Notes: generated by a model not told the origin, from the sequence alone. A stretch of 64,000 nt of DNA from Bacilli bacterium (GCA_017940575.1 JAGAYJ010000006.1:805-64804), one strand, 5' to 3'. Positions 6,507 to 30,489 are shown, counted from the first letter of the stretch. Numbers and translations are program-made.

Positions 6507-6508
6507 TT

Positions 6509-8257: not shown

Positions 8258-10373
8258 AGGAAATAGAGGACCAAAAGAAAAACCAAAAGATTTAAAAAGT
8301 TCGATTAAAAAACTTTTTACTTATTTAAAAAACTTTAGAGTTCTAATTTTTATATCAATCATTCTAGCTACTCTTGGAGCAATTCTATCTATAATAGGTC
8401 CAAATAAATTATCTGATTTAACTGATGAGATAAGTAGTGGACTTGTTATAAATCAAAAAAACATGGAAGAAATATCAAAGAAAGTTACTTCTAATTTAAC
8501 TGAAGATAAAATGCCTATCATAATATCTTCTATTATGATGGATTCAAATATATCAGATACTGATAAATTATCTTTATCAAAATTTGATTTTAAAAATGGC
8601 GATATTAAAACACTTCCTCTTAGTATTCAAAATAAATTATTCAATGAATTTACTTTTAATAAAGAAGTGATAAGTGTTAGTGATCAAGTTGAATTTGTAT
8701 CTATTATGAGTTCTATAAAAACGAGTAAAGATTCTAATTTAATATATTCAAAATTAGATAAATTACCAGATAGTATTAAAAATCAAATCAAACCTAAAAT
8801 GAATTTAAATAATATTAAAAATATAGGAGTATTCTTAATAACTTTATATTTATTAAGTGCATTATTTAATTTAATTCAAGGCTTTATTATGTCAGTTGTT
8901 TCTAATAGATTTGCAGAAGAGTTAAGAGATAAAATATCTGTTAAGATAAATAAACTTCCTCTTAAATATTATGATTCAAAACAAATAGGTGATATATTAT
9001 CACGTATTACTAATGATGTAGATACAATATCTCAATCAATGAATCAAAGCCTATCTTCTCTAGTAGGTGCGATTACATTATTTATAGGTTCAATTATAAT
9101 GATGTTTGTAACTAATGGAATTATGGCTATAGCTGCAATAGTATCATCTTTAATTGGTTTTGTATTTATGTTTATAGTATTATCTAAATCTCAAAAGTAT
9201 TTTTCTAAAAGGCAAGTAGAGTTAGGTAAACTTAATAGTCATATTGAAGAGGTGTATTCAGCTCATAACATAGTTAAAGTGTATAATGGTAAGAAAGACG
9301 CTAAAGAAAAGTTTGATAAGCTAAACAAGTCAGTTTATGACTGTAATAGAAAGAGTCAATTTTTATCAGGACTTATGCCTCCTATGATGGGATTTATTGG
9401 AAACTTAAGTTATGTTGTTGTATGTGTTGTTGGAGCATCACTTGTTATAAATGGTAATATTACATTTGGTGTAATTGTAGCGTTTATTCTTTATGCAAGA
9501 TTATTTACATCTCCACTATCTCAAATCGCACAAGGCTTAACTTCTCTTCAATCAACTGCTGCAGCAAGTGAGAGAGTATTTGAATTCTTAGAAGAAGAAG
9601 AGATGATGGATGAATCTAGCTTAACTAATAAAATAGATGTAAGTAAAGTTAGTGGTAGTGTAGAATTTAGTCATGTTAAATTTGGATATAATCCTGATAA
9701 ATTAATTATAAAAGACTTTAATGCTAAAATTAAACCAGGCAGTAATATTGCAATAGTAGGTCCAACAGGAGCAGGTAAAACAACACTAGTTAACTTACTT
9801 ATGAAATTTTATAATATTACAAGTGGTGATATTAAAATAGATGGTATATCTATTAATTCACTTACACGTGAAAACATTCATGATTTATTTATAATGGTTT
9901 TACAAGATACTTGGGTATTTAATGGAACTATTAGAGATAATGTTAAATATAATAGTAATGCTACTGATGAAGAGATTTGGGAAGCTTTAAAAACAGTTGG
10001 AGTAAGTCACTTTGTAAAATCACTTCCAGGTGGACTTGACTTTGTAATTAAAGATAACGACTCTATCTCACAAGGACAAAAGCAATTATTAACTATTGCT
10101 CGTGGTATGATTAAAGCATCTCCACTTCTAATTTTAGATGAAGCAACATCTTCAGTAGATACTAGAACAGAAGAATTAGTAAGTAGAGCAATGGATAATT
10201 TAACACACGGTAGAACTTCATTTATAATTGCTCATAGATTATCAACTATCAAGAATGCTGATGTTATCTTTGTTATGAAAGATGGAGATGTTATAGAGTC
10301 AGGTTCTCATGATGAGTTGATGAGTAAAAATGGATTTTATAGTGAACTTTATAATTCACAATTTGAAAATTAA
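8250..10373 (+). CDS. ABC exporter, fused permease/ATPase half-transporter (partner 2) with a long insert after TM1
   Basis: Walker A GPTGAGKTT, signature ISQGQKQL, Walker B LLILDEATSSVD. About 130 aa of non-membrane sequence lies between the first and second TM segments. Overlaps the upstream gene by 8 nt. Confidence 0.9.
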   Translation: MPRGNRGPKEKPKDLKSSIKKLFTYLKNFRVLIFISIILATLGAILSIIGPNKLSDLTDEISSGLVINQKNMEEISKKVTSNLTEDKMPIIISSIMMDSNISDTDKLSLSKFDFKNGDIKTLPLSIQNKLFNEFTFNKEVISVSDQVEFVSIMSSIKTSKDSNLIYSKLDKLPDSIKNQIKPKMNLNNIKNIGVFLITLYLLSALFNLIQGFIMSVVSNRFAEELRDKISVKINKLPLKYYDSKQIGDILSRITNDVDTISQSMNQSLSSLVGAITLFIGSIIMMFVTNGIMAIAAIVSSLIGFVFMFIVLSKSQKYFSKRQVELGKLNSHIEEVYSAHNIVKVYNGKKDAKEKFDKLNKSVYDCNRKSQFLSGLMPPMMGFIGNLSYVVVCVVGASLVINGNITFGVIVAFILYARLFTSPLSQIAQGLTSLQSTAAASERVFEFLEEEEMMDESSLTNKIDVSKVSGSVEFSHVKFGYNPDKLIIKDFNAKIKPGSNIAIVGPTGAGKTTLVNLLMKFYNITSGDIKIDGISINSLTRENIHDLFIMVLQDTWVFNGTIRDNVKYNSNATDEEIWEALKTVGVSHFVKSLPGGLDFVIKDNDSISQGQKQLLTIARGMIKASPLLILDEATSSVDTRTEELVSRAMDNLTHGRTSFIIAHRLSTIKNADVIFVMKDGDVIESGSHDELMSKNGFYSELYNSQFEN

Positions 10374-16224: not shown

Positions 16225-17790
16225 ATGATACTTAGAAAACCTTATGCAATATTAATTAAGAATTTTAAAATAATACATTTAATACTTTCTGTCTTAATGT
16301 TATATTTACTTTATAAGACTTATAACATTTTAGCATTTTTTAATAGCTATTTAAATACAATAGCAACTACCATTAGTAATGAAATTACTCGTTCCTTATT
16401 TGGTGTTTTACCAATAATAGTTAGTATTGGAATAATTGTAGGTTCTTTAATAATATTTGCTTTAATGAAATTTAAAGATAAGCCTGTTAAAACATACTTA
16501 TATAGTATAATTTCCTATATCGCTTTTATCGTTTACTATATAGTTACATTCAGTATAGTTAAATCATTAGAGCTAAATTTAGTAGATGTAAGAACTTTAA
16601 AGATACTTAGAGATTTAACAACCGTTGCTTTAATAGTAGAGTCAATAGCTTTTATAATTGTTCTTATTAGATCGACTGGATTTGATATAAAAAGTTTTAA
16701 CTTTAAAAAGGATTTGGAAGATTTAAATGTAGAAGTAGAAGATAGTGAAGAATTTGAAGTTAATACCGAAATAGATACATCAAAGTTAAAAAGAACATTT
16801 AATAAAAAGGTAAGACATTTAAAATATGCTTATTTTGAAAATAAGTTATTATTAAATATTATTGCAGTAATTATTATATTATTATTTGGTGGTTTATTCT
16901 ATTATAATAAAGCAGTTGTAAATAGAAAATATAAACAAAATGAATATATGACAACTAGTAGATTTTTATTTAATTTTACAAATTCTTATTTAACTAAATA
17001 CGATTATAAGAATAATATTTTATCTGAAAATACAGAACTTGTTATTATTAAGTTTAAAGTAAAAACATTATATGGATATAGTAATATAGGACTTGGAGCT
17101 TTTCAATTAAATGTTGATGGATATAAGTATCATCATAAAATGGATTTAAAAGATTCAGTATTTGATTTAGGAGTTACATTTAATGATCAAAGAATAAAGC
17201 CTGATTATCAAGATTTTATTCTTGTATTTGAAATTCCATCGTCAAAAGAAAATAGTAAAATGAAACTTAAATACTTTGATTATTTAAAAACATATGAAGT
17301 TAATATTAAACCACAATCATTAAATAATATTAAAGAATCTAAGTCAGCTAATATAGCAGATGAATTGGTATTTGATGATTCAGTTTTGAATAATGCAAGC
17401 ATTAAAATTGAAAGTGCTGAGATAAATAGAAGTTTTAAATCTGAGTATCAAACATGTCCAAATAATAAATGTAGTACTTATTATGAATATATTGTTCCAA
17501 GTACAAATAATGGAGCTGAATATCTACTTAAAATAGATGGTGTTTATAAAAATCCAGATGCTAATGAAAAGATAAATACATTATATAAATTTATAAAAAC
17601 ATTTGGTAAAATTAAATATTTAGATAATGGAACATATAAAACAATGGATATTGGTATAAATCAAGTAAAACCAAGAATGTCTACATCATCATCTATTTAT
17701 TTAGAATTAACAGAAGAAGCTTCTAATAAAGAACATATTATAATTGAATTTAATGTTAGAGGTAAATTGTACACTTATAGTGTAAAATGA
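16225..17790 (+). CDS. Polytopic membrane protein with a large C-terminal extracytoplasmic domain, function unknown
   Basis: About 5 N-terminal hydrophobic segments, an acidic linker (EDLNVEVEDSEEFEV), a further TM (LLLNIIAVIIILLFGGLFYY), then ~300 aa predicted outside. RBS AGAGGGA. Confidence 0.6.
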   Translation: MILRKPYAILIKNFKIIHLILSVLMLYLLYKTYNILAFFNSYLNTIATTISNEITRSLFGVLPIIVSIGIIVGSLIIFALMKFKDKPVKTYLYSIISYIAFIVYYIVTFSIVKSLELNLVDVRTLKILRDLTTVALIVESIAFIIVLIRSTGFDIKSFNFKKDLEDLNVEVEDSEEFEVNTEIDTSKLKRTFNKKVRHLKYAYFENKLLLNIIAVIIILLFGGLFYYNKAVVNRKYKQNEYMTTSRFLFNFTNSYLTKYDYKNNILSENTELVIIKFKVKTLYGYSNIGLGAFQLNVDGYKYHHKMDLKDSVFDLGVTFNDQRIKPDYQDFILVFEIPSSKENSKMKLKYFDYLKTYEVNIKPQSLNNIKESKSANIADELVFDDSVLNNASIKIESAEINRSFKSEYQTCPNNKCSTYYEYIVPSTNNGAEYLLKIDGVYKNPDANEKINTLYKFIKTFGKIKYLDNGTYKTMDIGINQVKPRMSTSSSIYLELTEEASNKEHIIIEFNVRGKLYTYSVK

Positions 17791-17792
17791 TA

Positions 17793-17820
17793 TTGTTTTA
17801 ACTAAAATATGTGCTATAAT
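17793..17820 (+). promoter_or_regulatory. Candidate promoter with extended -10 (TGcTATAAT) ahead of the adhesin/Tad genes
   Basis: TTGTTT (17793-17798), 16-nt spacer, TG at 17812-13, TATAAT at 17815-17820. Confidence 0.4.
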
Positions 17821-17841
17821 TAAATATGAGAGGATGATAAA

Positions 17842-18492
17842 ATGGGAGTATATAAAAAAGCTTTATTAACACTTTTTCTATTTCTTGGTATGAGTCATGT
17901 TAATGCCGCAGCTTGTGATAATACTTTAAAAGTAGATTATCAAAATAGAGCTAAGAATATTACTTATTCTTATACTTATAATGATTCTAATAATACTTTT
18001 AATTTGTTGTTTACAAATATTACAGATAGTTTATATTTGATTGACATGGAAAACATGCAAGAATATAGAAATCAAGGCGAAATTACAATGGGTAATGTAC
18101 TTCCAGGCAAAAGTTATAGATATGGAGTATTTACAAGTGATCAAAATCCTTGCAGTAGTTCTAGTATTTATTATATTTATGTAACCCTTCCTTTTTATAA
18201 TCCTTACTATAATGATTCTTTATGTGATGGAATAAGTAGTTATAAATATTGTCGTAAATTTATAAATAAATCTATTAGTTATGAAGAATTTACTGAAAAT
18301 GTTAATGAGTATAGAGATAACTTAAACAGTGAAGATACTAAAGAAGTTGTTGATGAAGAAACACTTTTAGAAAAAGTTTTTGATTATATAACATCTTTTT
18401 ACACTAATTATTATTTTATTATCTTACCAGTCATAATAATTATTTCTATAGTAATTATTATAAGACAAAATAAGAAAGACAGTTTGTTTTAG
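17842..18492 (+). CDS. Secreted, C-terminally membrane-anchored Cys-containing protein, function unknown
   Basis: Signal peptide ...GMSHVNAAA. C-terminal TM YYFIILPVIIIISIVIIIRQNKK. Several Cys residues. Confidence 0.6.
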   Translation: MGVYKKALLTLFLFLGMSHVNAAACDNTLKVDYQNRAKNITYSYTYNDSNNTFNLLFTNITDSLYLIDMENMQEYRNQGEITMGNVLPGKSYRYGVFTSDQNPCSSSSIYYIYVTLPFYNPYYNDSLCDGISSYKYCRKFINKSISYEEFTENVNEYRDNLNSEDTKEVVDEETLLEKVFDYITSFYTNYYFIILPVIIIISIVIIIRQNKKDSLF

Positions 18493-18502: not shown

Positions 18503-21500
18503 ATGAAGAAAAAAATTAGTTTATTATTATTTATAATACCTTTATTAATGTTTCCTTTAATGAATGTAGGGGCAGGCGATAATGAAGGAATAGAATTAAG
18601 AGAAATTACAAAAGTGGAACGTAAAAAGGGATATTTGATAAAATTTAGCGGTTCAAATAACCAATTAGTTCACAATGGTGATTTATTTGAAATTGAATTA
18701 AATAAAAAAGTTGCACTTTGCCTGGACCCAGGTCAACATATTTATGAGAATGCTAAATATAGGATGATTGGAAAAATAATGAAGGATGATTCAGACTCAA
18801 GCCACCCAAGCCCAAGTAATTTATTAATTAAGGCTTATTTATATGCATTAAGTAACTCCAGTACTAGCACTTTAGATGATAAACGTAGAAGAGCAGCTTC
18901 TCAGATTGTTGCATGGCAATGGGGTACTGCTGAATATACAAAAGGTTTATCTCAAGATGAAGAAGAAATATTAGCAATTAAGGATTCAATAAATATTAAT
19001 ATGAGCCTTGAAAATTTTAGGTATATTAGTGAAGATGCCTTTAAAAGTAAATATCCAAAAGGCACTTTAGAACGTTCATTATACGATGGACTTGAAAAAT
19101 TTGTTCCTAAAAATGTTAATAATAATTTAATAAAACATCTTTTTCAATTAGCAAATACTTTTATTGAAAAACAACATATTTTGGATACTGTTATTCCAGA
19201 TGATTTAGAATATTTAGGAATTTGGCAAGATACAAACAATCCTAGCAATCAAAGAGTATTAGCTTTATCTGATCAAGAAGCAGAAAAAGAATTAGAAAAA
19301 GAAAATTGTAAACAAGTTACATTTAATGCCTTATCTGATTGTTATGGCGATGATACACTTACATATGGAAGCATTTATCAAGAAACTGTAGGTGATTGTA
19401 AAAATTATTATGATAAAAAAACAAACAATAAATATTCTACATATGGTGTTAAAGATACTGATTTTGGAACATATTGTAGAATGTACTGTAATAAGTCATA
19501 TCGTCAAATCCTTCCAGGAAATATAGCAACTGCTGTAAACGTTGGAAGATACATTGTATGGCCTAATAATAATATTGAAAATAATAGATATAAAATAAAT
19601 GCTAATTTAGCAACATATCCAATGGAATTAACTTTAACTAAATCATGTCATATTGGACTTGCATATAGTGATGATACAAACAAATATCAAATTGAAACTG
19701 ATTATCAAACAGCTTATGGAAATTATATAAATTATATTAATTCAACAAGAGATTCTAATAATAAATTAGTTTATAATCAATATAAAAATGATAGTTATTC
19801 ATGTAAACCAACTTATGAAAACACATATAAAGCATTAAAAGAAGATGCTGATGATTATTGTAATAATAAAGTTGGCGAAGAGCCTACACCAGCAACTGTC
19901 AAAACTAATCCTCATGAATGTTGCTCTGGACCTGGTCGATGGGTTGGTGGCGTATTTGCATGTCCAACAACTACATGTTATGATGATGTGGAAACACAAG
20001 AACATAAAGATTGGAAAGAAAGAGTTAATACATGTAATGAAAAGAAAAAAGCTGCAGAAACAGCTTATGCTAACTTAGAAAAATGTGAAAAAATATCTGA
20101 GCATGAAAAAACAATTGCAGATATTATAGAAGATTTTAATAGTTGTGTTGGATATAATGCAAATATTAATTTAAATTTCTCTGTTCCAGGAATAAGCGTT
20201 TCATATAATGATGAAGAATATGGAACTACTATGGGACTTAAAGAAACATATGTTAGAAAAACGTGTACAAATTGTACTTCATCAATTGCTAAAATTCCAG
20301 CTGTTATTGCTTCAAACGCAACTGTAAATCTTACAAGGACAATTCAAACTAAAATTAATGCAATTAGTTCTAAAACAATTATTGGTGTTACAACTAAAAA
20401 ATATGATTTAGCTAATGGTTATTATTATTTTGTTAATAAGGATACAAATAAAGCTATAAGTACACTTAATACTAGAAACTATTCCATAATAGGATTTAGT
20501 AATATGCCTATTTCTTATAAAGCTAATTCAAAGAAAAAATATGATTTAAAAGTTATTATGTCATCTGTTACTGGAGATGCTAGTGTATTTAGTAAAGAAA
20601 TTGCTTCTAATAATTATGTATGTCATTATAAAGTAACAAAAACAACAAGTCCATCATGCGTATGTCCTGAGGGAACATTACATGCTGGAGAATCACTTGA
20701 TTGTTTATCTAAAAACAATAATGGAACTTGCCTAGATAATCAAGAACAATATTGTAATTCTAGTGCTGAAATTCCACATAATTGTACAAGTTCTGATTTA
20801 ACTTGTCCAAATGATCCATCAATGGATTTATCTGCTTGTGTTAATGCAGGTAAGACATATAATTGGTGTGTAAATAACTTCTGTGATGGAAAGGTACCTA
20901 ATCCTGATAATCCTGATGACCCTATTGTTCCAAGTAATCCAGTTAATCCTAATGGTGGTGGAAATGGTAATCGTGGATGGGTATGTCCTGCAGGAACAAA
21001 CGAAGGCATGGATTTATCTAGCTGTGTAATTCCTATGATGATAAAAGGTTATAGTGAAAAAGATGCATATGAATATTGTCGTGATGTAACTTGTCCTTAT
21101 GGTGGAATTAAAATAATCTATAGAGTTATAGATTTAGCAAATCCATTCCCAAGTAAGGATGCAGATAGTGTAGTTACACAAACAGGATTAAAAACAGGAA
21201 TGTTTAATGATCAATTAAAAGGTCGTTATCCAGGATCTAACTGGAATAGTACAAATGTTGTTAAGAAAAGAATTTTGAACAATAGAAATGTAGATGGTGA
21301 TAAAGTTTATAATAAACAACCTTTATACACATTTATTGTTGATTCAAGTAAAATAAAAGCAATTAGAAAATACAATGATGCTCAAAGAGATAGTTATGCT
21401 GATTTTAAACTAAATTGTTTAGATGGTAGAACTGCTTGTAAGAGTGACTTTGTACATAATTCAATATATGGTATAACAGGAGGTACATGTAAGAATGTTT

Positions 21501-21532
21501 CTAAAGGAAGCTTCTATACATGTGCTAATTAA
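18503..21532 (+). CDS. Large (1009 aa) secreted cysteine-rich protein; candidate adhesin with a thioester-domain-like (TQXA-like) N-terminal motif pair
   Basis: Signal peptide MKKKISLLLFIIPLLMFPLMNVGA. ALCLDPG (Cys73) and AASQIVAWQW (Gln134) resemble the Cys and TQxA(I/V)W motifs of thioester domains. A Pro-rich linker and repeated CP.GT...DLS.C modules lie in the C-terminal third. No LPXTG. Confidence 0.6.
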   Translation: MKKKISLLLFIIPLLMFPLMNVGAGDNEGIELREITKVERKKGYLIKFSGSNNQLVHNGDLFEIELNKKVALCLDPGQHIYENAKYRMIGKIMKDDSDSSHPSPSNLLIKAYLYALSNSSTSTLDDKRRRAASQIVAWQWGTAEYTKGLSQDEEEILAIKDSININMSLENFRYISEDAFKSKYPKGTLERSLYDGLEKFVPKNVNNNLIKHLFQLANTFIEKQHILDTVIPDDLEYLGIWQDTNNPSNQRVLALSDQEAEKELEKENCKQVTFNALSDCYGDDTLTYGSIYQETVGDCKNYYDKKTNNKYSTYGVKDTDFGTYCRMYCNKSYRQILPGNIATAVNVGRYIVWPNNNIENNRYKINANLATYPMELTLTKSCHIGLAYSDDTNKYQIETDYQTAYGNYINYINSTRDSNNKLVYNQYKNDSYSCKPTYENTYKALKEDADDYCNNKVGEEPTPATVKTNPHECCSGPGRWVGGVFACPTTTCYDDVETQEHKDWKERVNTCNEKKKAAETAYANLEKCEKISEHEKTIADIIEDFNSCVGYNANINLNFSVPGISVSYNDEEYGTTMGLKETYVRKTCTNCTSSIAKIPAVIASNATVNLTRTIQTKINAISSKTIIGVTTKKYDLANGYYYFVNKDTNKAISTLNTRNYSIIGFSNMPISYKANSKKKYDLKVIMSSVTGDASVFSKEIASNNYVCHYKVTKTTSPSCVCPEGTLHAGESLDCLSKNNNGTCLDNQEQYCNSSAEIPHNCTSSDLTCPNDPSMDLSACVNAGKTYNWCVNNFCDGKVPNPDNPDDPIVPSNPVNPNGGGNGNRGWVCPAGTNEGMDLSSCVIPMMIKGYSEKDAYEYCRDVTCPYGGIKIIYRVIDLANPFPSKDADSVVTQTGLKTGMFNDQLKGRYPGSNWNSTNVVKKRILNNRNVDGDKVYNKQPLYTFIVDSSKIKAIRKYNDAQRDSYADFKLNCLDGRTACKSDFVHNSIYGITGGTCKNVSKGSFYTCAN

Positions 21533-21541: not shown

Positions 21542-21943
21542 ATGAAAGAGTCATTTTGGAGTGTATTTATCGTTATGATTGGCGTTATATCTCTAGCTTT
21601 CATTTACTTCTTTCAAACTGTTACATCTACAGATGAACAAAACTATACAATTTTAAAAGAAGTAACGGAAGCATCTATGTGGGATGCCGTTGATTGGACA
21701 GAATATAGAGCAACAGGAAATGTCAGAATTAATAGAGAGAAGTTTGTTGAAAACTTCATGAGAAGATTTGCTGAAAGCGTTTCTTTAGGAAATGTTTATA
21801 AAATAGATATTTATGATGTTAATGAATATCCACCTAAAGTAAGCTTAAAGGTTTCATCGAAATTAAATTCAAATGTGACCGATGAAATAGTAGAGTTCGA
21901 TATTGTAAATAAAATAGATGCAATATTAGAAACACCATATTAA
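21542..21943 (+). CDS. Small protein with an N-terminal hydrophobic helix (possible minor pilin or pseudopilin-like)
   Basis: MKESFWSVFIVMIGVISLAFIYFF, then a soluble ~105-aa domain. Sits immediately before the cpaB-like gene. Confidence 0.45.
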   Translation: MKESFWSVFIVMIGVISLAFIYFFQTVTSTDEQNYTILKEVTEASMWDAVDWTEYRATGNVRINREKFVENFMRRFAESVSLGNVYKIDIYDVNEYPPKVSLKVSSKLNSNVTDEIVEFDIVNKIDAILETPY

Positions 21944-21963
21944 AGAAAGGAAAGGGAAAAAAT

Positions 21964-22797
21964 ATGAATAATTTTATGATTTCAATTAAAAGATTTTTTC
22001 AAAACAAAAATACAGTAACAATCATTGGAGTTATATTAATTTTATTAGTATTATTCTTAGGATATCGTTACCAAATTAATAGAGCAGTTAACCCAGTATC
22101 AGGTATACCAGTTGCTACTCAAACAATTCAACCAAGAACATTAATAGAAAGTGATATGGTAGATACTATTCAAGTAGCACCTATAGTACTATCTGAAAAT
22201 GTAATTAGAACAAAATCTGCTGTTGTTGGAAAATATACTGCAGTTAATACAGTAGTTCCAGAAGGAAGTATGTTCTATAAAAATACAGTTGTAACAAAAG
22301 ATGAACTTCCAGATGCTGCATTTGTAGACATCGAAAAAGGTCAAATTCCATACAACTTCCCAGTTACTATGGCATCTACTTATGGTAACTCAATTTATCC
22401 AGGAAATTATATTGATATCTACATGAAATCATATAATGAAAGTGGAGAATTAATGGTTGGTAGATTAATTGAAAACGTTAAAGTATTAGCAGTAAAAGAT
22501 TCTTCAGGTAAAAATGTATTTGAAAACTCTGAAGAAACAAGAGTACCAGCTTATATAATCTTTGGATTAGATTATGAATTAAATATTCTACTTAGAAAAG
22601 CTAGCTACATGGATGAATTCTCAGTAGATTTATTCCCAGTACCACATGGTACACAAGTTAAAACTGGTGAAGGTGAAACAGTTGTAAGTAGCCAAACATT
22701 AAAAGACTTCATAAATGCTAATACAGTACCTAACGATGAAATAACTGCACAACAAGAAGCTGATGCAGCAAAAGAATCTGTTGAAACTAACGAATAG
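21964..22797 (+). CDS. cpaB: Flp pilus assembly protein CpaB/RcpC-like (SAF domain)
   Basis: N-terminal TM. SAF-like segment IPVATQTIQPRTLIESDMV...VVGKYTAVNTVVPEGSMF. Then PGNYIDIYM...ENVKVLAVKD...IIFGLDYELNILLRKA, as in CpaB C-terminal domains. Confidence 0.7.
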   Translation: MNNFMISIKRFFQNKNTVTIIGVILILLVLFLGYRYQINRAVNPVSGIPVATQTIQPRTLIESDMVDTIQVAPIVLSENVIRTKSAVVGKYTAVNTVVPEGSMFYKNTVVTKDELPDAAFVDIEKGQIPYNFPVTMASTYGNSIYPGNYIDIYMKSYNESGELMVGRLIENVKVLAVKDSSGKNVFENSEETRVPAYIIFGLDYELNILLRKASYMDEFSVDLFPVPHGTQVKTGEGETVVSSQTLKDFINANTVPNDEITAQQEADAAKESVETNE

Positions 22798-22811
22798 AAA
22801 GTTAAGGTATC

Positions 22812-23924
22812 ATGGAAGATAGTATGTTCTCCCAAATTGATTTTGGGGATTTACAACAATACTTAGATAACGATGATATAACAGATATTTCATATGATAA
22901 TGGTGGTCAAATCCACTTAAAAACATTATCAAGAGGTATATTCAGGATAGAAAATCCTAATATAAATAATGCATTTATGGAAAAATTAGCATTCCAATGC
23001 TCAAACGTAATGGGTAAGACATTTAATATGGCTCACCCATTCCTTGATGCAGAAGGGTCTGAACTTCGTTTAAACTTTGTTCATGAATCCATAGCTAAAA
23101 ATGGTATAGCTTGTGTTATACGTAAAACACCAGCTAAAATCAGACTTGAAAAAGAAAAATTGCTAAAAGAAAAATATATTGATTTAGATATACATGATTT
23201 TTTAATTCAATGTGTACTTGGACATTGTAATATCATTGCTTGTGGAGAAACTGGTTCTGGTAAAACAGAGTTTATAAAATACTTAGCTTCTAAAACAAGA
23301 CCAGATGAAAAAATAATTACAATAGAAGATACACTTGAACTACATTTGGATAAAATATTTCCACATAGAGATATTGTTACAATGAAGACAAATAATATAG
23401 CATCTTATTCAGATGTACTTGTCACTTGTATGAGACAGAATCCTAAATGGATACTTTTATCAGAGGTACGTAGTGCTGAGGCTGTAATGGCGGTAAGAAA
23501 CTCAATTTCATCAGGTCACTATATCTTATCAACAATACATGCTGATAGAGCATCTTCAATACCAAACCGTATGTATAGTTTGCTTGAGTCAAATCAAGAT
23601 ATGGATCAATATATGAAATCAGTATATCGTTATATACAATTAGGTGTATATATAAGAGGTTTTCAAGATAAAGCAACAAAACGATTTGTTCGTGAAATTG
23701 CTGAAGTAACAGAATTTTATGTTACTGAAGATAATGAACCAAGATATAATGAAATTTATAAAAAAACAACAACAGGTCATGTTGTTAGACACAAACCATC
23801 CAAATACTTAATTGATTACTTGGATAGACAAGGCGTAACGCTTGATGAAAACTTAATTCATGAAGGTGAAAGTGGTACACCTATAGATACTGAGAATTCA
23901 ATTGAGACTATTGGTGGTGAATAA
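22812..23924 (+). CDS. tadA: TadA/CpaF-type (T2SS-E/VirB11 superfamily) secretion ATPase
   Basis: Walker A ACGETGSGKTEF. Walker B/Asp box ILLSEVRSAEA. His box STIHADRASS. Size of 370 aa. Confidence 0.8.
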   Translation: MEDSMFSQIDFGDLQQYLDNDDITDISYDNGGQIHLKTLSRGIFRIENPNINNAFMEKLAFQCSNVMGKTFNMAHPFLDAEGSELRLNFVHESIAKNGIACVIRKTPAKIRLEKEKLLKEKYIDLDIHDFLIQCVLGHCNIIACGETGSGKTEFIKYLASKTRPDEKIITIEDTLELHLDKIFPHRDIVTMKTNNIASYSDVLVTCMRQNPKWILLSEVRSAEAVMAVRNSISSGHYILSTIHADRASSIPNRMYSLLESNQDMDQYMKSVYRYIQLGVYIRGFQDKATKRFVREIAEVTEFYVTEDNEPRYNEIYKKTTTGHVVRHKPSKYLIDYLDRQGVTLDENLIHEGESGTPIDTENSIETIGGE

Positions 23925-23934
23925 GGAGGATATT

Positions 23935-24843
23935 ATGGTTACTTTAATAGTTTTCTTAATTATAGCATTTATAATTGTCTTTGTAATGGCCTATAGATAC
24001 AATTCAGGAGATAGTTTTTATAAATATATATCAAAACAATCAAATCTTTTATATGAAAAATTTGCTCCTTATTCATTTAAAGAAATAAGAGAAAAAGTTA
24101 AAGATTTAGGTCAAGAGTATACTAAAAAACAATATATGATACAAATTGGTGTATTCTCAATTTCAGCAGCAGTTATATCATATTTGTATTTTTATAATTT
24201 ACTAATTTCTTTAATTTACATTATTGCTTCAATTGTTGTAATTCCAGTATTAACATTTTATAGATGTAAACGTATTTATTCAGAATTTATTTTTGAACAA
24301 ATTCAAGTTTATACAACAAATGTTATTATGGAATTCGCAACTACACAATCATTTGTAAAAGCACTAGAAGGTGTTTATGATTCAGGTGTCTTAGAAGATC
24401 CTGTTAAAAGTGATGTTAAGACAATGATAGATATGTCATATGAAAATGGTACTATAGATGCGGCTGTAGCGTTTATGAATGAGAAATATGATTATTATAT
24501 TGTTAAAAATATGCATCAATTATTTATTCAAATTACAAATGAAGGTTCTAAAAATTCAAGTGATGCTTTAGAAAATATGTCACTTGATATCGATATGCTT
24601 GTTGAAAATGTATATCGTGATAGAATGGATAGAGCACAATTCCATAAAAAATTCTTACAATTTGGTATTGTTTTATATTTAATGGTTATGTTAGTACAAT
24701 TCTTACTTGGAACAGAATCTTACATAAAATTACTTGATACTAATTTACTTGTTCAAGTATTATTACATGCAATTATTATTGTTAATTCATACTTCTTACT
24801 TAATGGTGAGAAATACTATAATGAGAATGTGGGGGCTGAATAA
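23935..24843 (+). CDS. tadB: TadB-like platform protein (T2SS-F domain family)
   Basis: The start is moved to ATG 23935 (AAGGAGG 6 nt upstream). Topology is N-terminal TM, a TM pair, a ~150-aa cytoplasmic helical domain and a C-terminal TM pair, as in TadB/TadC. Confidence 0.6.
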   Translation: MVTLIVFLIIAFIIVFVMAYRYNSGDSFYKYISKQSNLLYEKFAPYSFKEIREKVKDLGQEYTKKQYMIQIGVFSISAAVISYLYFYNLLISLIYIIASIVVIPVLTFYRCKRIYSEFIFEQIQVYTTNVIMEFATTQSFVKALEGVYDSGVLEDPVKSDVKTMIDMSYENGTIDAAVAFMNEKYDYYIVKNMHQLFIQITNEGSKNSSDALENMSLDIDMLVENVYRDRMDRAQFHKKFLQFGIVLYLMVMLVQFLLGTESYIKLLDTNLLVQVLLHAIIIVNSYFLLNGEKYYNENVGAE

Positions 24844-25628
24844 TGGAATTTTTAATTATTGGTGTAATTCTTTTATTCATACTTCAATATAGTAAAAGAA
24901 TTAATTTAAGAAAATTTGTTGGTGATACTGAACCATACTTTAGATCATTAATGGAAGAAGATTATGAATTCTTACTTAAACTTAAATATGGTAACGATGT
25001 AGATGTTAATGAAATATTTGGTACAAGAGTTAGAAATGGTTTAGTAACAATCGTAATACTTATATTTGTATTTGTAATGTCTAAACCAAGCTTTATAAAT
25101 GTTTTACTTGCTTTTATACTAGGATTTGTAGTATTTAAAATGCCTTATTCTAGTTTACAAACTTATTATAAAAACAACTTACATCATATAGATCAAATGC
25201 TTCCATATTATTTAAAGAGTTTGGAAATCTTAATCCAACATTATACTGTTCCAGTAGCGCTTAGAAGAAGTATTAACACAGCTCCTGAAATCTTTGTTCC
25301 AGGACTTAAAAGATTAGTTGATAGAATTGAACAAGGTGATTCTTCAGTTGATCCTTATATGGATTTCGCAAAAGAATATCCTGTACGTGATTCTATGCGT
25401 ATGATGCGTTTACTTTACCGTTTAGGTTTAGGAGACCAAGAAAACAAACAAGAACAATTAGTTATGTTTTCACGTACTGTATCAACTCTTCAAAATAAAG
25501 CTCGTGAACAAAAATACAAAGAACGTTTGGAGAAAATGGAAAACAAAACAATGCAAATGTTATTCGTAACAGGTGGAGGTATATTATTATTACTTCTATT
25601 CTCAATGTTACAAATGATGAATTTATAA
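24843..25628 (+). CDS. tadC: TadC-like platform protein (T2SS-F domain family)
   Basis: Same topology. LPYYLKSLEILIQHYTVPVALRRSI... resembles the T2SSF motif. TAATG overlap with the upstream gene. Confidence 0.6.
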   Translation: MEFLIIGVILLFILQYSKRINLRKFVGDTEPYFRSLMEEDYEFLLKLKYGNDVDVNEIFGTRVRNGLVTIVILIFVFVMSKPSFINVLLAFILGFVVFKMPYSSLQTYYKNNLHHIDQMLPYYLKSLEILIQHYTVPVALRRSINTAPEIFVPGLKRLVDRIEQGDSSVDPYMDFAKEYPVRDSMRMMRLLYRLGLGDQENKQEQLVMFSRTVSTLQNKAREQKYKERLEKMENKTMQMLFVTGGGILLLLLFSMLQMMNL

Positions 25629-25657
25629 TTAGAACATAAAATTGTTCTAATTTTTTT
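25629..25657 (+). terminator. Rho-independent terminator after the tadC-like gene
   Basis: ttagaaca-taaaat-tgttctaa followed by T7. Confidence 0.65.
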
Positions 25658-25762
25658 GTCTTCTTTTAACTAGTTTTGTCGAATTACTTGATTATATATG
25701 TTTTTATTTTAAAATAAACAATTAATTATTCTTTTAATATTAGTTAGAAAGAAGCTGATTAG

Positions 25763-26671
25763 ATGAATGAAATTATTGAAAAAGAATTAAATATAGAAGA
25801 TATGATATATGAGATAAGAGGTAAACAAGTAATGCTTGATAGTGATTTAGCTTATTTATTTGATTATGAAACAAAAGATTTAAATAGAAATGTTAAAAAT
25901 AATATGAAAAGATTTCCAATAAATTATTGTTTTCAATTGACTGACGAAGAATATTCTAACTTGAGGTGCAAAAATTTCACCTCAAGTTTAAAAAATAACT
26001 ATGGTGGAAGAAGATATAATCCATATGTTTTTACAGAACATGGAATTACGATGCTGGCAGGAATATTAAAAAGTGAAAAAGCTATTAAGATGAGTTTAAA
26101 AATAGTTGATACGTTTATAAGAATGAGACATTTCATTAAAGATAATATGCTTACTCAACAAAATATAAATAATATAGTTTTAGAAGATCATACTCATATT
26201 TTAAAAATGGATGATGATTTAAAATTACTACAAGAAGCTTTTGATAAATTAGAAGATAAAAAAAGAGTTAATGAAATATATTTAGATGGAGAGTTTTATA
26301 AAGCTTTTTCAAGAGTTATAGATATATTTAATGAAGCTAAGAAAGAGTTAATAATAATAGATAGTTACGCTGATAAAAAGCTATTAGATATTATTAAAGA
26401 TTTAAATATAAAAGTAACTATAATTACAAAAGAAAAAGGAAAACTAAATAAAACTATAATAGATGAATATAATAAAGAATTTAATAATTTAAAAGTTATT
26501 TATAATGATTCATTTCATGATAGATATTTTATAATAGATAGAAATATAATATATCACTCAGGTACATCAATAAACTATATGGGAAGTAAAACATTTAATA
26601 TTAATTTAATACAAGATAAATATGTATTTGATTTATTAATAAAAAAAATTACTCAAATAATTTGTCAATAA
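25763..26671 (+). CDS. ORF6N/KilA-N-type DNA-binding domain protein with a C-terminal HDR...GTS module
   Basis: N-terminus IYEIRGKQVMLDSDLAYLFDYETKDLNRNVKNNMKRFPINYCFQLT is the ORF6N pattern. C-terminus LIIIDSYADKKLLD...FHDRYFIIDRNIIYHSGTSINYMGSKTF. Confidence 0.7.
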   Translation: MNEIIEKELNIEDMIYEIRGKQVMLDSDLAYLFDYETKDLNRNVKNNMKRFPINYCFQLTDEEYSNLRCKNFTSSLKNNYGGRRYNPYVFTEHGITMLAGILKSEKAIKMSLKIVDTFIRMRHFIKDNMLTQQNINNIVLEDHTHILKMDDDLKLLQEAFDKLEDKKRVNEIYLDGEFYKAFSRVIDIFNEAKKELIIIDSYADKKLLDIIKDLNIKVTIITKEKGKLNKTIIDEYNKEFNNLKVIYNDSFHDRYFIIDRNIIYHSGTSINYMGSKTFNINLIQDKYVFDLLIKKITQIICQ

Positions 26672-26693
26672 CTGTAAATAACACAAATAATAT

Positions 26694-26722
26694 TTGATAA
26701 ATAATTAATATAGTGTTATACT
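26694..26722 (+). promoter_or_regulatory. Promoter for the pilin/tadZ-like sub-operon
   Basis: TTGATA (26694-26699), 17-nt spacer ending in TGT, TATACT (26717-26722). Confidence 0.5.
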
Positions 26723-26757
26723 ATAAATGTAGAAAAATATAATAAGGTGGTGAGAAA

Positions 26758-26940
26758 ATGAAAGAAGCATCTGGAGAAGCAAATATGACTGTAGTTACAA
26801 TCATCTTAATCGGTATTATAGTTGCTGTAGCTACACCATTAATTAATAGTATGATGAATAATACTAAAACTAAAGCTGAATGTATGAATAATGGTGGTTA
26901 TATTGAAAATGGTAAATGCGTTGGAGCTACTTCAAATTAA
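26758..26940 (+). CDS. Small (60 aa) pilin-like protein, candidate major subunit
   Basis: MKEASG leader, a 22-residue hydrophobic helix (MTVVTIILIGIIVAVATPLI), and a C-terminal Cys pair (AECMNNGGYIENGKC). Strong RBS AAGGTGGTGA. Confidence 0.55.
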   Translation: MKEASGEANMTVVTIILIGIIVAVATPLINSMMNNTKTKAECMNNGGYIENGKCVGATSN

Positions 26941-26951
26941 TTGGTGATTAG

Positions 26952-27377
26952 ATGAAAGAAGCAATTGGACATATTCCATTATATAATTTTTTAATAATAT
27001 TTATCATTATAACTTTTGGATTTTTATCTGCAACTTTAACTTACTATAAAGCATTTAAAGTTAATAGTAGAATTGCATATACTTTAGAAGAATTTGAAGG
27101 CTATAATAGTGAATCTATTAAAGAAATTAATAGAGTCTTAGGTACAATGGGATATAGAACAGGTAGTGCTAAGAATTGTCCTAAAAAGTCAATTGGTAGT
27201 GCATTATCTACAAAAGGAATAAATCATCCTGTTTGTATTTATGAGTCTAAGCAAAAAAATGGATATTTTAATTATGGTATTGTAACCTATATATATCTTG
27301 ATATTCCTGTATTGGGTGGAACATTTAAAGTTCCTGTATATACAGAAAGTGAAAGAATATTTAAATTTTCAAGTTAG
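26952..27377 (+). CDS. Pilin-like or pseudopilin-like protein (paralog 1)
   Basis: MKEAIG leader + hydrophobic helix. Two Cys. Clearly paralogous to 27390-27833 (YKAFKVNSRI / TKAFKVKNRI; GIVTYIYLDIPVLG / GVVAYIYMEIPIIG). Confidence 0.55.
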   Translation: MKEAIGHIPLYNFLIIFIIITFGFLSATLTYYKAFKVNSRIAYTLEEFEGYNSESIKEINRVLGTMGYRTGSAKNCPKKSIGSALSTKGINHPVCIYESKQKNGYFNYGIVTYIYLDIPVLGGTFKVPVYTESERIFKFSS

Positions 27378-27389
27378 AGTGGTGATAAT

Positions 27390-27833
27390 GTGAGAGAGGC
27401 AATTGGTAATAGTTTTGTACTTAATTTTATCATCACTTTTATCATCTTGTTTATTTTAATTTTTGTTGGTACAACTACTTATACGAAAGCTTTTAAAGTA
27501 AAAAATAGAATAGTTGATATCATTGAAAATTATGATGGAAATATATCGAATGGTAATAGATTAAATAGTTCTGTACAAGATGAAATAAATGAAAAATTAG
27601 GTCAAATAGGTTATAGAATAGAACCAAATTCTGAGTGTAAAACTGATGGTCGTTTTTCTAAAGGAACTGTTTTATCAAAAACAAGTAATTATAGGTATTG
27701 TATTTATAGATTTACGACTAATAAAGGTAACTATTATGGAGTTGTTGCGTATATTTATATGGAAATACCAATAATTGGTGCAAAATTAGAATTCCCAGTT
27801 TATGGTGAAACTAAAATTTTTTATGATTTATAA
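27390..27833 (+). CDS. Pilin-like or pseudopilin-like protein (paralog 2)
   Basis: GTG start. MREAIG leader + hydrophobic helix. Two Cys. Paralog of the preceding gene. Confidence 0.55.
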   Translation: MREAIGNSFVLNFIITFIILFILIFVGTTTYTKAFKVKNRIVDIIENYDGNISNGNRLNSSVQDEINEKLGQIGYRIEPNSECKTDGRFSKGTVLSKTSNYRYCIYRFTTNKGNYYGVVAYIYMEIPIIGAKLEFPVYGETKIFYDL

Positions 27834-27849
27834 TGAGGGGATGGGTTAG

Positions 27850-28857
27850 ATGAATGTAATTATTTCTAATAAACATCAACAAACTCTTGAAATGTTAGAG
27901 ATTGATGTTATTAAATCTTTAAATGGTGAATTTGATGTAGATGATATTATTAGTCAATTTAAAAATTTCTATTTTCAAAGAATGATTATTGATATTACTG
28001 CTTTAAAAAACTATAAAGATATTAAAACACTTCAAAAATTATCTATTTCACTTGATATGGATAAAGTGATTTTATTACTTGATGATTCTGTTGATGATGG
28101 AACAGGTGATTTCTTATCTAAATTAGTTTCAATGGGAATATATAATTTTACACGTAATGTAGATGGTATAATGTACTTATATAACAATCCAAATAGTTAT
28201 AGAGATGTTGCACATATTCAACAATTAGATGTTAATACTACAGATCAAGTAAGTGTCAATACAACAGTTGTTGAAAATATTTATACAGGAACACGTATTA
28301 TAGGTATAAAAAATGTAACAAAGCAAACTGGAGCAACTACACTTTCATACATGATGAAAAAACAATTAGAGAAACATTATAGTGTTGTAGCACTTGAAGT
28401 TAATAAAGATGAATTTAGATATTTTAGAGATAAAAATATGTATTCAGTTAAAGATGTTGAGCTTGGAAATGCTATAGCAAAATATAATGATCGTGATGTT
28501 ATTATCGTTGATGTTAATGATTCTCTTCAAGCAGAAAGTGTTTGTCATGAAATCATATATTTAGTAGAACCATCAATTATAAAACTTAATAAGTTAATGA
28601 CAGTTAATCCAACTGTATTTAAGAAAATTAAAGGTAAGAAAATTATATTGAATCAAAGTATTTTAAGCCCAAAAGATGTACTTGATTTTGAGTATGAATC
28701 TGGTGTTAAAATATATTTCAATATGCCACCTTTAGATGAGAGAGAAAGAAGTATACATATACTTAATAAATTCTTAGTTATGCTTGGATTTTCAAAACAA
28801 CAAGATAGTGAAGAAGATAATAAAAAATTCAATATTTTAGGCTTATTTAAAAAGTAA
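27850..28857 (+). CDS. TadZ/CpaE-like ParA/MinD-fold protein with an N-terminal receiver-like domain and a degenerate P-loop
   Basis: The N-terminal ~120 aa are receiver-like (VIISNK...IIDITAL...VILLLDD). The ParA-like core is RIIGIKNVTKQTGATTLSYMMK...VVALEVN...VIIVDVND, but the KGGxGK(T/S) lysines and glycines are not conserved. Confidence 0.5.
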   Translation: MNVIISNKHQQTLEMLEIDVIKSLNGEFDVDDIISQFKNFYFQRMIIDITALKNYKDIKTLQKLSISLDMDKVILLLDDSVDDGTGDFLSKLVSMGIYNFTRNVDGIMYLYNNPNSYRDVAHIQQLDVNTTDQVSVNTTVVENIYTGTRIIGIKNVTKQTGATTLSYMMKKQLEKHYSVVALEVNKDEFRYFRDKNMYSVKDVELGNAIAKYNDRDVIIVDVNDSLQAESVCHEIIYLVEPSIIKLNKLMTVNPTVFKKIKGKKIILNQSILSPKDVLDFEYESGVKIYFNMPPLDERERSIHILNKFLVMLGFSKQQDSEEDNKKFNILGLFKK

Positions 28858-28933: not shown

Positions 28934-29299
28934 ATGTTAAATATTTTAGAGATTACTTGTGGTACTAGTGTTAGAATACCAGACATACTTCCAAATTTAG
29001 TACATTACTTAATTTTATTTATTCAAATCTTTATTCCAATTGTTTTAATCGTTCTTGGAATGCTTGATATGGGTAAAGCTGTAATGAGCAATGATGAAAA
29101 AGTAATGAAAGAAAACCAAAACAAATTAATTAAAAGAGTTATTTATGCTGTATTAGTTTTCTTAGTAGTTGCTATTGTTAAGACAGTTGTAAGTATGGTT
29201 GCTAATGTAAGTAAAGATGATAGTGCTGCAGAAAGCGGAAATATTTCTACTTGTATTGAATGTTTCGTTAACGGAACTGAATCAAGCAAATGTAAATAA
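28934..29299 (+). CDS. VirB2/TrbC-like small two-TM pilin-like conjugal transfer protein
   Basis: Hydrophobic hairpin LVHYLILFIQIFIPIVLIVLGMLDMGKAVMSNDEKVMKENQNKLIKRVIYAVLVFLVVAIV fits the Firmicutes/Mollicutes pilin-like family pattern (..P.LLIV.G..DF.KAV...DE...K...K.IKR.I.A..VF). Confidence 0.55.
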   Translation: MLNILEITCGTSVRIPDILPNLVHYLILFIQIFIPIVLIVLGMLDMGKAVMSNDEKVMKENQNKLIKRVIYAVLVFLVVAIVKTVVSMVANVSKDDSAAESGNISTCIECFVNGTESSKCK

Positions 29300-29310
29300 T
29301 AATCTAAAAA

Positions 29311-29346
29311 AACAATAATAATTATGTTTATTATTGTTTTTTTTTA
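29311..29346 (+). terminator. Hairpin + T-run directly after the VirB2-like gene (possible attenuating terminator), followed by TGcTATAAT
   Basis: aacaataata (29311-20) pairs perfectly with tattattgtt (29329-38), followed by a T-run. An extended -10 tgctataat follows at 29347-55. Confidence 0.55.
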
Positions 29347-29385
29347 TGCTATAATATATTTGTGATAGTGTAATGGAGTGATAAT

Positions 29386-30489
29386 ATGAAAAAATGGTTA
29401 AAATATATATTAATTACATCTATATTTATGTTTATTGGCATGTCATCAAGTATGGCGTTAACACCTAAATTCACATGCACTTATAATGTTAAAGTTGATG
29501 ATTTAAAAATTGGTGCTAGTGGTTCAAAAAAATATGTTGTATCAGTATATAATGAAACAACTGCAACTTCAAATGTTAGCGTTGGTGAGACAATTGATGA
29601 TAGTGGAAATCTTTATGTTGCATTTAATGGAGGAGAAAAATCTTTTCATAAACAATTTGCAAAAGCCGCAACTGATGGTAATTTATGCCCTGTAATTAAA
29701 ATATCATCATACAATAGTTCAGACATTCAATTCAATTTAATTGGTCATGACACAACAGGCCAAGCTTCAAAAGAATATGAAGGTACTATTAAAATTATGT
29801 CAAAAGAAGTTAAAGTTGAAACAGAGAATGAAGTATGCTCTTTTACAACACAAGAAATTAAATCACAATCAGCGTCTATTACAGTTCATTTTTATAATCA
29901 GGGTTCAAAAAAACTTTGGGCAATTTATAAAAATATGGATGGTCAGGACCCACGTTTGATAGATAAAACAGACTATAATAAATCAATAGTAGACGGTGAA
30001 TACTCATATAGAGTATCTGAAAGTGATTATGATAATTTTTGGACAAACGGTAAATGTGATAAAATAGGTCATTATGTTCAATCATCAAATGGAGGTCTAT
30101 TTACAATTCAATCAGAAAAACCAAGCGATGCTGAAAATGGTGAGGCAGGTTCGACTGTAACACCAACTGAAAAACCTGATTCACCTCAAGTGGTTAATTT
30201 TGGTGGATGCGCAGATATGCCAAAAACAACTGAATTATTAAGACAAGTGTATAGATTAGTTAGATATTTAATTCCTGTTTTAATAATAGTTTTAAGTATT
30301 GTTGATTTTATAAAAGTTGTTGCAAATGGTGATGATAAAGAATATAAAAATGCATGGAATAAATTTATTAAAAGAATTATTATTGGAATTGTAATTATTA
30401 TTGTTCCAACAATTATTAGCATGCTTATTGGATTGAGTGGCTTAGATACTGCTTATGGAATAAAAGATATTATTTGTGTCATTAAATAA
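29386..30489 (+). CDS. Secreted ~270-aa domain fused to a C-terminal VirB2-like two-TM module
   Basis: Signal peptide MKKWLKYILITSIFMFIGMSSSMA. The C-terminus GGCADMPKTTELLRQVYRLVRYLIPVLIIVLSIVDFIKVVANGDDKEYKNAWNKFIKRIIIGIVIIIVP aligns with the whole of 28934-29299. Confidence 0.55.
   Translation: MKKWLKYILITSIFMFIGMSSSMALTPKFTCTYNVKVDDLKIGASGSKKYVVSVYNETTATSNVSVGETIDDSGNLYVAFNGGEKSFHKQFAKAATDGNLCPVIKISSYNSSDIQFNLIGHDTTGQASKEYEGTIKIMSKEVKVETENEVCSFTTQEIKSQSASITVHFYNQGSKKLWAIYKNMDGQDPRLIDKTDYNKSIVDGEYSYRVSESDYDNFWTNGKCDKIGHYVQSSNGGLFTIQSEKPSDAENGEAGSTVTPTEKPDSPQVVNFGGCADMPKTTELLRQVYRLVRYLIPVLIIVLSIVDFIKVVANGDDKEYKNAWNKFIKRIIIGIVIIIVPTIISMLIGLSGLDTAYGIKDIICVIK

Follow-up and report, generated by a model that had tools for sequence, protein, structure and literature searches.

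What does a large secreted protein do when its gene lies beside those of a Tad-like pilus and a type IV secretion system (T4SS), and does it carry the chemistry to attach covalently to a target? The question is raised by a stretch of DNA of 64,000 nucleotides (nt) from a Bacilli bacterium (GCA_017940575.1, JAGAYJ010000006.1:805-64804), referred to here as the window, in which positions 18503-21532 encode a protein of 1009 amino acids (aa). A preliminary description noticed in this protein a cysteine and a glutamine motif reminiscent of the thioester domains (TEDs) of Gram-positive surface adhesins, and proposed an internal bond between Cys73 and Gln134. Judging from profile comparisons and a predicted fold, the N-terminal domain (N-domain) is very likely a remote TED homolog, in which the predicted thioester partner of Cys73 is Gln250 rather than Gln134. 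As an explanation of the whole protein, a Sec-exported modular surface adhesin with a divergent TED head is probable.

The gene is recognised as an open reading frame (ORF) with a ribosome-binding site, AGGAGG, 7 nt 5′ of the ATG, and by its homologs; positions are counted from the first letter of the window, and the mapped features of the protein and of the modules beside it all lie on the plus strand. Its product comprises the TED head, a cysteine-rich stalk and a conserved C-terminal module. Residues 1-24 (18503-18574) read as a signal peptide of the typical Sec type, with cleavage between MKKKISLLLFIIPLLMFPLMNVGA and GD. The reading frame, the signal peptide, Cys73 (18719-18721) and Gln134 (18902-18904) are all where the preliminary description placed them, and a motif scan bears out its statement that the protein has no LPXTG-like motif and ends in ...FYTCAN; a C-terminal hydrophobic or transmembrane (TM) segment was not found in the protein either. 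The protein contains 37 cysteines, and Cys73 is the odd one out because the other 36 all lie outside the head, within residues 269-1007, leaving it alone within residues 1-268.

The relationship to TEDs emerges from profiles of the family. While a single-sequence phmmer search of the PDB returned noise only, a profile of nine N-domains gave one match among all PDB sequences, the TED of SaTIE (6fx6, E=0.19), and a profile of 18 diverse N-domains found the same single chain at E=4.9e-4; a full-length family profile likewise found 6fx6 alone. In the 18-sequence profile alignment the Cys73 column falls on position 47 of the 6fx6 chain, corresponding to SaTIE Cys296, and SQIVAW falls on TQMLIW at chain positions 100-105, corresponding to SaTIE residues 349-354; the SaTIE residue numbers are our own mapping from chain positions, obtained by counting through the printed alignment. 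Cys296 is the crystallographically confirmed thioester cysteine of SaTIE (PMC6194298). A second link runs through intermediate proteins, since the nine-sequence profile, searched against 1.84 billion representative sequences, reaches P0033 (E=7.7e-5) and P0038 (E=4.6e-4), the only two of 33 remote relatives that are matched by the Pfam TED model (23.1 and 20.9 bits, respectively, at a cut-off of 22). P0038 bears SpaA stalk domains matching BaTIE; its alignment covers the entire domain and sets its YQRILS on NQRVLAL, the segment that holds Gln250. The TED-like reading of the N-terminal domain in the preliminary description is thus borne out as remote homology, by the profiles, the links through P0033 and P0038 and, weakly, the fold. 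The divergent and compact thioester-like domain extends over residues ~30-256 (18590-19270), as delimited by the profile, Foldseek and the order of predicted structural elements.

The family of the 1009-aa protein is small and lacks annotation. A set of 5.8 billion proteins contained eight homologs, with identities of 84-33%, and the N-domain profile retrieved 35 clusters (50% identity level) from the 1.84 billion representatives at E<=1e-3; the members are mostly 850-1100 aa long, and the conserved motifs of the window protein are present in their consensus from end to end. In the nine-sequence alignment, in which identities range down to 36%, L66, L72, C73, A111, Y114, Q134, I135, W138, W241 and Q250 are invariant, so that both residues on which the preliminary description relied are conserved in homologs. 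When 18 diverse N-domains, 16-53% identical to that of the window protein, are compared, only C73, A111, W138 and Q250 remain invariant, with Q134 and W241 kept in at least 90% of them. The context of the cysteine is invariant as [LF]C across the family, the position of the Thr in TQxxΦW is occupied by Ser, Ala, Thr or Gly, and the Gln250 motif reads mostly [YFM]QxΦΦ in the homologs. Chance origin of the motif pair was considered and is excluded by this conservation pattern together with a shuffle test, in which 12 of 20,000 shuffles of the protein produced a [YFL]CΦζ motif with [STA]QxxΦW 40-80 residues behind it, and 3 of 20,000 the three TED motifs in order.

Which glutamine would bond with Cys73? 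In characterised TEDs, the bonding residues are a Cys within [YFL]CΦζ and a Gln within a weak ΦQζΦΦ motif on the last β-strand, and only these two are universally conserved (Miller et al., PMC6194298). The TQxxΦW sequence is a third TED motif, located on helix α2, whose Gln and Trp adjoin the thioester and hydrogen-bond to the backbone of the Cys but are dispensable for bond formation (PMC6194298). The window protein has a counterpart of each. Cys73 lies in ALCLD, a [YFL]CΦζ motif, and is the predicted thioester cysteine by its invariance across the family and its alignment to SaTIE Cys296. S133-Q134-I-V-A-W138 (18899-18916) is a TQxxΦW-type accessory motif on helix α2, aligned to SaTIE T349-Q350-MLI-W354. 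Gln250 (19250-19252) lies in NQRVL, a ΦQζΦΦ-type motif, and is the predicted thioester glutamine by its invariance and its alignment to the YQRIL of P0038.

The bond put forward in the preliminary description, between Cys73 and Gln134 with an unusually short spacing of 61 residues, can draw on the conservation of both residues and on the proximity of the TQxxΦW Gln to the thioester Cys in real TEDs (PMC6194298), which makes the two residues probably close in space. It is nevertheless very improbable: the SaTIE thioester joins Cys296 to Gln467 (PMC6194298), and the profile alignment sets Gln134 on the accessory Gln350, not on the bonding Gln467, so that the bonding equivalent is the invariant Gln250. 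The TQxxΦW Gln and Trp are neither bonding nor essential in the characterised TEDs (PMC6194298), and one family member lacks Gln134 and retains Gln250, which fits Gln250 as the partner. The concern raised over the 61-residue spacing also falls away, as this is an ordinary distance from the Cys to TQxxΦW (54 in SaTIE); the separation of Cys73 and Gln250 is 177 residues in the window protein and ~115 in the minimal homologs P0006-P0008. It is important to point out that modelling the proximity of Cys73 and Gln134, as had been suggested, would not discriminate between the two pairings, since real TEDs have the two glutamines close to the Cys. With Gln250 as the predicted partner, the alignments and the modelled fold make an active Cys73-Gln250 thioester reasonably probable.

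The predicted fold agrees with this assignment of motifs. The AlphaFold2 (AF2) model of residues 22-262 has a predicted TM-score (pTM) of 0.77 and a core predicted local distance difference test score (pLDDT) of 85-92, with a poorly predicted insertion at model residues 122-151. Four β-strands are followed by three main helices and two β-strands; Cys73 is at the end of strand 3, Q134 and W138 are in helix 2 (model residues 103-120), W241 is in the penultimate strand and Q250 stands two residues ahead of the last strand. TEDs fold into an antiparallel β-barrel of six strands together with a bundle of three helices. Their upper lobe has the layout A-B-C-D-α1-α2-α3-P-Q, in which strand C carries the Cys, α2 the TQxxΦW motif and strand Q the bonding Gln (PMC6194298), and the modelled element order of the N-domain matches it. 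Foldseek comparison of the domain model with the PDB returned Cpa (2xi9_B, E=0.038), the SaTIE TED (6fx6, E=0.088, probability 0.87) and, next, Cpa again (2xid_B), while all other matches had probabilities of 0.07 or less. For the full-length model, itself poor, 6fx6 and 2xid also ranked first, and with both models the only matches above a probability of 0.1 were TEDs. The Foldseek scores are weak, and agree with the sequence evidence.

Within the TED fold, two classes are distinguished by what is inserted into it. The hallmark of class II is an insert of ~75 residues that separates α3 from strand P and folds into a seven-stranded β-sandwich, producing a slipknot (PMC6194298). No such sandwich is found in the N-domain, where AF2 gives helix or disorder between W138 and W241, and in the minimal homologs P0006-P0008, with ~48 residues from the motif Trp to the LYIW strand, it is ruled out because this segment is too short once α3 is counted. 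Class I TEDs (SfbI, Cpa, CpTIE, PnTIE) are marked by a helix α0, which as an indel of 15-20 residues separates strand D from α1, and by a linker of ~10 residues from α3 to strand P (PMC6194298). The short linker is present in the AF2 model, where a helix at 187-207 is followed by a strand at 216-222. Helix α0 is seemingly absent: the model has no helix between strand D and α1, and the segment is only a few residues long in the minimal homologs. The N-domain thus looks like a minimal TED variant and not like a clean member of either class. From a reading of its sequence, P0033, which scores above the Pfam cut-off, seems likewise compact, and therefore compact TEDs may exist inside the recognised family.

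Several results count against reading the protein as a thioester adhesin. With a threshold as lenient as E<=10, the window protein is matched neither by the Pfam TED model (PF08341) nor by any model in NCBIfam, so that PF08341 and TIGR03934, which the preliminary description had proposed for a check, both fail to recognise it; among the NCBIfam families listed for the 33 remote relatives there is no thioester or TQXA model. The AF2 model of the N-domain was built on a multiple sequence alignment of nine sequences only, and its Foldseek scores for TEDs are weak (E 0.02-0.09, TM-scores <=0.35). Ser or Ala stands in place of the TQxxΦW Thr, and the residue preceding Gln250 in the window protein is Asn and not hydrophobic. 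Isopeptide and Cna stalk domains are missing from the protein, as is any known anchor that would account for its retention on the surface, and no relaxase was found among the ORFs scanned, so the T4SS is perhaps not conjugative. The NCBIfam scan of the 33 relatives returned only weak SMC/Rad50-type matches in some of the homologs, which we take for a coiled-coil signal or noise.

Some of these observations lend weight to an alternative in which a TED-derived fold persists and no thioester is formed or used, the head binding non-covalently or serving a structural role. The sequence has diverged past the reach of curated TED models, the Thr of the TQ motif is replaced, and both the protein and its neighbour are rich in cysteine; Cys73 might instead form a disulfide with a partner, e.g. 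the Cys-containing 216-aa protein encoded next to it. This is unlikely in our view, given that Cys73, Gln250 and Trp138 stay invariant through N-domain identities of 16-53% and through replacement of the head between strains, and that the Cys and Gln preserved here are the very pair that all TEDs share (PMC6194298). In a further alternative the N-domain is an enzyme, either a cysteine peptidase or transglutaminase-like, whose nucleophile is Cys73 and which acts e.g. in cell-wall or surface remodelling for the secretion apparatus. A single invariant Cys in a domain of a secreted protein, and a C39-like hydrolase encoded in the same block of genes, would suit such an enzyme. It is scarcely credible: no peptidase family or structure was matched in Pfam, NCBIfam, PDB profile or Foldseek comparisons, and the significant remote matches are all TEDs. 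The 9- and 18-sequence alignments contain no invariant His, Asp or Asn in the N-domain, and the peptidase reading was rejected for want of a residue to complete a catalytic dyad or triad.

The head is also variable between strains. The window was compared with L028, a near-identical strain represented by a contig from a different study. DNA alignment of the two delimits a hypervariable cassette at 18558-19550: from ~18558 to ~19550, which corresponds to the mature TED head, indels occur and the identity drops to 32-81%, in contrast with 93-100% in the upstream genes, the signal peptide, the sequence beyond residue ~350 and the downstream genes. At its 5′ end the cassette begins abruptly, directly after the signal peptide, the DNA of which is 99% identical. 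Both alleles retain the Cys, the xQxxΦW motif and the NQRVL motif. This suggests allelic replacement of the head or diversifying selection, and the pattern fits that expected for a target-recognition module exchanged or diversified between strains. No silent head cassettes or further copies of the TED head occur elsewhere in the window. Mutagenesis by a diversity-generating retroelement was considered and is unlikely, as the alleles differ by indels and are as little as 32% identical; no dedicated search for such an element was made.

For residues 269-1009, which follow the head, no relative emerged from Pfam, NCBIfam, the PDB sequences (by profile) or Foldseek, and a protein search with the C-terminal 320 residues returned only three fragments. 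The middle region (residues 269-700; 19307-20602) is rich in cysteine and, according to AF2, consists of β-sheets and long helices. The full-length model has a mean pLDDT of 55.8, with values mostly of 65-90 for residues ~290-460 and 500-640 and a 50-residue helix at 499-549. The cysteines outside the head, of which 27 of 36 are invariant, suggest a disulfide-stabilised stalk. Pfam finds no SpaA, Cna or Ig domains in the protein, which is not a TIE (thioester, isopeptide, ester) protein in the strict sense because Cna/SpaA isopeptide domains are missing; TIE proteins are also sortase-anchored, by a C-terminal LPXTG signal. The C-terminal module (residues 701-1009; 20603-21529) is the most conserved part, with the highest density of invariant columns and the motifs GIKIIYRxIxLxNPFPSxDAD…GMFND…GRYPGxNWNS…ILNNR. 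Within it, AF2 fails on residues 865-1009 (21095-21529; pLDDT <40), although this is the most conserved stretch of the family. We propose that the C-terminal module might serve in docking or retention. In the distant homologous locus L001, a 60-aa thioredoxin-like gene (PF13192; 7317-7499) lies just upstream of the corresponding block, and may be relevant to disulfide formation in Cys-rich exported proteins.

The genomic setting ties the protein to a larger apparatus. The window is chromosomal in character, with genes for PBP5, a pseudouridine synthase, SecDF, RelA, FtsK and ScpA, and a megablast search of the PLSDB plasmids gave no match. Housekeeping genes stand on either side of a co-oriented block from ~15.4 to 41.6 kb (~15400-41650). 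Ahead of the target gene, two genes assigned to the block by synteny (16225-18492) encode a 521-aa protein with multiple TM segments and one of 216 aa that combines a signal peptide and several cysteines with a C-terminal TM anchor; neither has a Pfam match, and both are candidate anchoring partners. Behind it follows the Tad-like pilus module (21542-28857), identified by Pfam, by leaders read from the translations and by synteny, which encodes, in order, DUF5411, an RcpC/CpaB-like protein, a T2SSE ATPase, TadB/C-like proteins, a 60-aa Flp-like pilin, two pseudopilin-like proteins and a TadZ-like candidate, the last from a reading of its sequence only and with no Pfam match. The adjoining module (28934-41203) was identified by Pfam as a T4SS of the monoderm type and comprises T4SS_pilin-like, TrbL/VirB6-like and VirB4-like ATPase genes, a glucosaminidase with a C39-like hydrolase, and a VirD4 coupling protein.

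Some details of these modules deserve mention in their own right. The Flp-like pilin and the proteins of 141 and 147 aa (26758-27833) have in common a leader M[KR]EA[SI]G followed by a hydrophobic helix, and such leaders suggest signal peptides of class III (prepilin). A gene for a prepilin peptidase was not found within the block. Between the TadC-like and Flp-like pilin genes lies an ORF6N/Rha-like (KilA-N-type) gene (25763-26671), which looks like a recent insertion because it is specific to the window and found at that place in none of 24 related loci. The cell-wall hydrolase of the T4SS (37018-38463) joins a glucosaminidase to a Peptidase_C39-like/papain-like domain; the commoner pairing in T4SS hydrolases is a lytic transglycosylase with CHAP or NlpC/P60.

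The same arrangement recurs across related genomes. All 24 related loci, including 21 from GTDB species genomes that carry labels such as uncultured Bacilli, Tenericutes and Erysipelotrichaceae, show the identical order where the contig is long enough: 521aa-216aa-target-DUF5411-RcpC-TadA-TadB-TadC(-pilins-TadZ-T4SS). The 1009-aa protein is therefore a fixed component of the Tad/T4SS apparatus. The preliminary description had suggested an adhesin for this apparatus; membership of the operon is established by the order in these 24 loci, and the adhesin part of the suggestion is plausible, with a precedent in TIEpLS20 (PMC8092201). A MarR-ABC-ABC trio of genes lies upstream of the block (6069-10373), as it does in L001. 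Neither a relaxase nor an integrase is detectable by Pfam among the window ORFs scanned, which, together with the housekeeping flanks and the trio, hints at a vertically inherited chromosomal apparatus and not a typical integrative and conjugative element.

How might the protein work? In the proposed mechanism, Cys73 on the third β-strand and Gln250 just before the last β-strand would form an internal Cys-Gln thioester, with S133-Q134-IVA-W138 on an adjacent helix in the accessory role that TQxxΦW has in known TEDs, hydrogen-bonding to the Cys backbone. A nucleophile of the target surface, e.g. a lysine amine, would attack the thioester, by analogy with SfbI, Cpa and TIEpLS20, and so tether the producer covalently to that surface. 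The Cys-rich, probably disulfide-stabilised stalk of β-structure and coiled coil would present the head, while the conserved C-terminal module may retain the adhesin on the cell or on the Tad-like pilus/T4SS apparatus, its likely contacts being the two membrane proteins encoded upstream or minor pilins. Cell-cell contact, on which the adjacent T4SS depends, would in this way be established or stabilised by the adhesin, with the variable head setting target specificity. Bond formation, covalent capture of the target, the mode of retention and the role in T4SS contact are steps that we infer from the features described above.

Whether the contact serves the T4SS and Tad apparatus or another purpose is evenly poised. 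A TED adhesin could equally be thought of as a tool for colonising a host or substrate, binding mucus, dietary or epithelial ligands by way of the Tad-like pilus, and not for mating contact through the T4SS. The related organisms come from gut and rumen metagenomes, the gene adjoins the Tad-like module and not the T4SS core, the ORFs scanned yielded no relaxase, and most characterised TEDs bind host proteins (PMC6194298, PMC8092201). Against a role in colonisation, the Tad and T4SS genes form one co-oriented block and are conserved together where contigs are long enough, and TIEpLS20 shows that TEDs can serve conjugation (PMC8092201). On balance colonisation is a possible role, if a rather doubtful one. 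The Tad pili of gut bifidobacteria are reportedly a parallel for it.

Returning to an adhesin that serves the T4SS, a bolder extension would take the locus not as a mobile conjugative element but as a vertically inherited chromosomal Tad pilus with a relaxase-less T4SS of uncultured low-GC gut and rumen Bacilli, in which the protein exemplifies a minimal thioester warhead of a new class, mounted on a disulfide-rich stalk and covalently harpooning other cells for the exchange of DNA or effectors, with partner specificity set by head swapping between strains. This extension is speculative and unlikely. To our knowledge, bacteria have no device other than thioester adhesins for attaching covalently to a target, and we know of only one, TIEpLS20, that has so far been tied experimentally to Gram-positive conjugation. 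If the thioester reading is true, TED chemistry extends to a lineage invisible to curated models, to an architecture of stalk and retention without isopeptide domains or a sortase signal, and, in uncultured Bacilli of gut and rumen, to an apparatus that combines a Tad pilus with a T4SS. It would also mean that current TED hidden Markov models under-detect the domain. The compact head, ~165 residues in the smallest homologs and without either of the class-defining inserts, could help to define the minimum required for a thioester, and the exchange of the head, within sharp boundaries, between near-identical strains suggests a determinant of partner or target specificity that can be tested.

Among known systems, SaTIE-TED (6fx6) is the only solved chain detected by the family profile; its Cys and TQxxΦW motifs align with those of the window protein at a comparable spacing (54 as against 61 residues), and the upper-lobe topology of the AF2 model matches. 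The class II TEDs to which it belongs (SaTIE, BaTIE, EfmTIE86) differ in having a β-sandwich insert and in being sortase-anchored via isopeptide domains (PMC6194298), whereas the window protein has a predicted helical segment in place of the β-sandwich and no sortase signal. Cpa (Spy0125) of Streptococcus pyogenes (2xi9/2xid) is the top Foldseek match and a pilus-associated TED, and it shares with other class I TEDs, e.g. SfbI, and with the model of the window protein a short connection from α3 to strand P. Cpa, however, belongs to a sortase-assembled pilus, is linked by isopeptide domains and has the class I helix α0, while the window protein accompanies a pilus of the Tad/Flp type (type IVc-like), apparently without α0, and the Foldseek match between them is weak (E=0.04, TM 0.35).

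A functional analogy, with no homology, is offered by the PilV tip adhesins of the IncI/I2 conjugative type IV pili (R64, TP114; PMC9045228). In these, too, an adhesin of a type IV-family pilus acts on a DNA-transfer system and a variable part sets recipient specificity; PilV, however, belongs to the minor pilins, owes the variation of its C-terminus to a shufflon and binds non-covalently (PMC9045228). In the window protein it is the N-terminal head that varies, seemingly by allelic replacement, and the window holds no silent cassettes. Relaxase-less T4SSs of the monoderm type have been described in Patescibacteria (PMC12102498), and the window resembles them in its chromosomal-looking block without a detectable relaxase.

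By analogy, the closest functional precedent is TIEpLS20 (p34), encoded by the Bacillus subtilis plasmid pLS20, which is needed for conjugation in liquid and is inactive as a C68S mutant (PMC8092201). The comparison relies on the published description of TIEpLS20, and no sequence similarity to the window protein was detected beyond the TED. The TED of TIEpLS20 is of class II, with the β-sandwich slipknot, and precedes three Cna-like Ig domains, and HHpred detects its relationship to BaTIE at 99.8% probability (PMC8092201), whereas the window protein has a compact TED without the insert, no Cna domains, and a 36-cysteine stalk with a C-terminal module. The setting also differs, in that the window locus looks chromosomal and has the added Tad-like pilus module. 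TIEpLS20, like the window protein, combines a Sec signal peptide with an N-terminal TED and a single Cys in a [YFL]CΦζ motif, its thioester residues being Cys68 and, as predicted partner, Gln256; it has no LPXTG motif and no known anchor, nor a lipobox, and ends in a C-terminal region of unknown fold that is proposed to serve in retention (PMC8092201). Both proteins, finally, are encoded within a Gram-positive T4SS operon.

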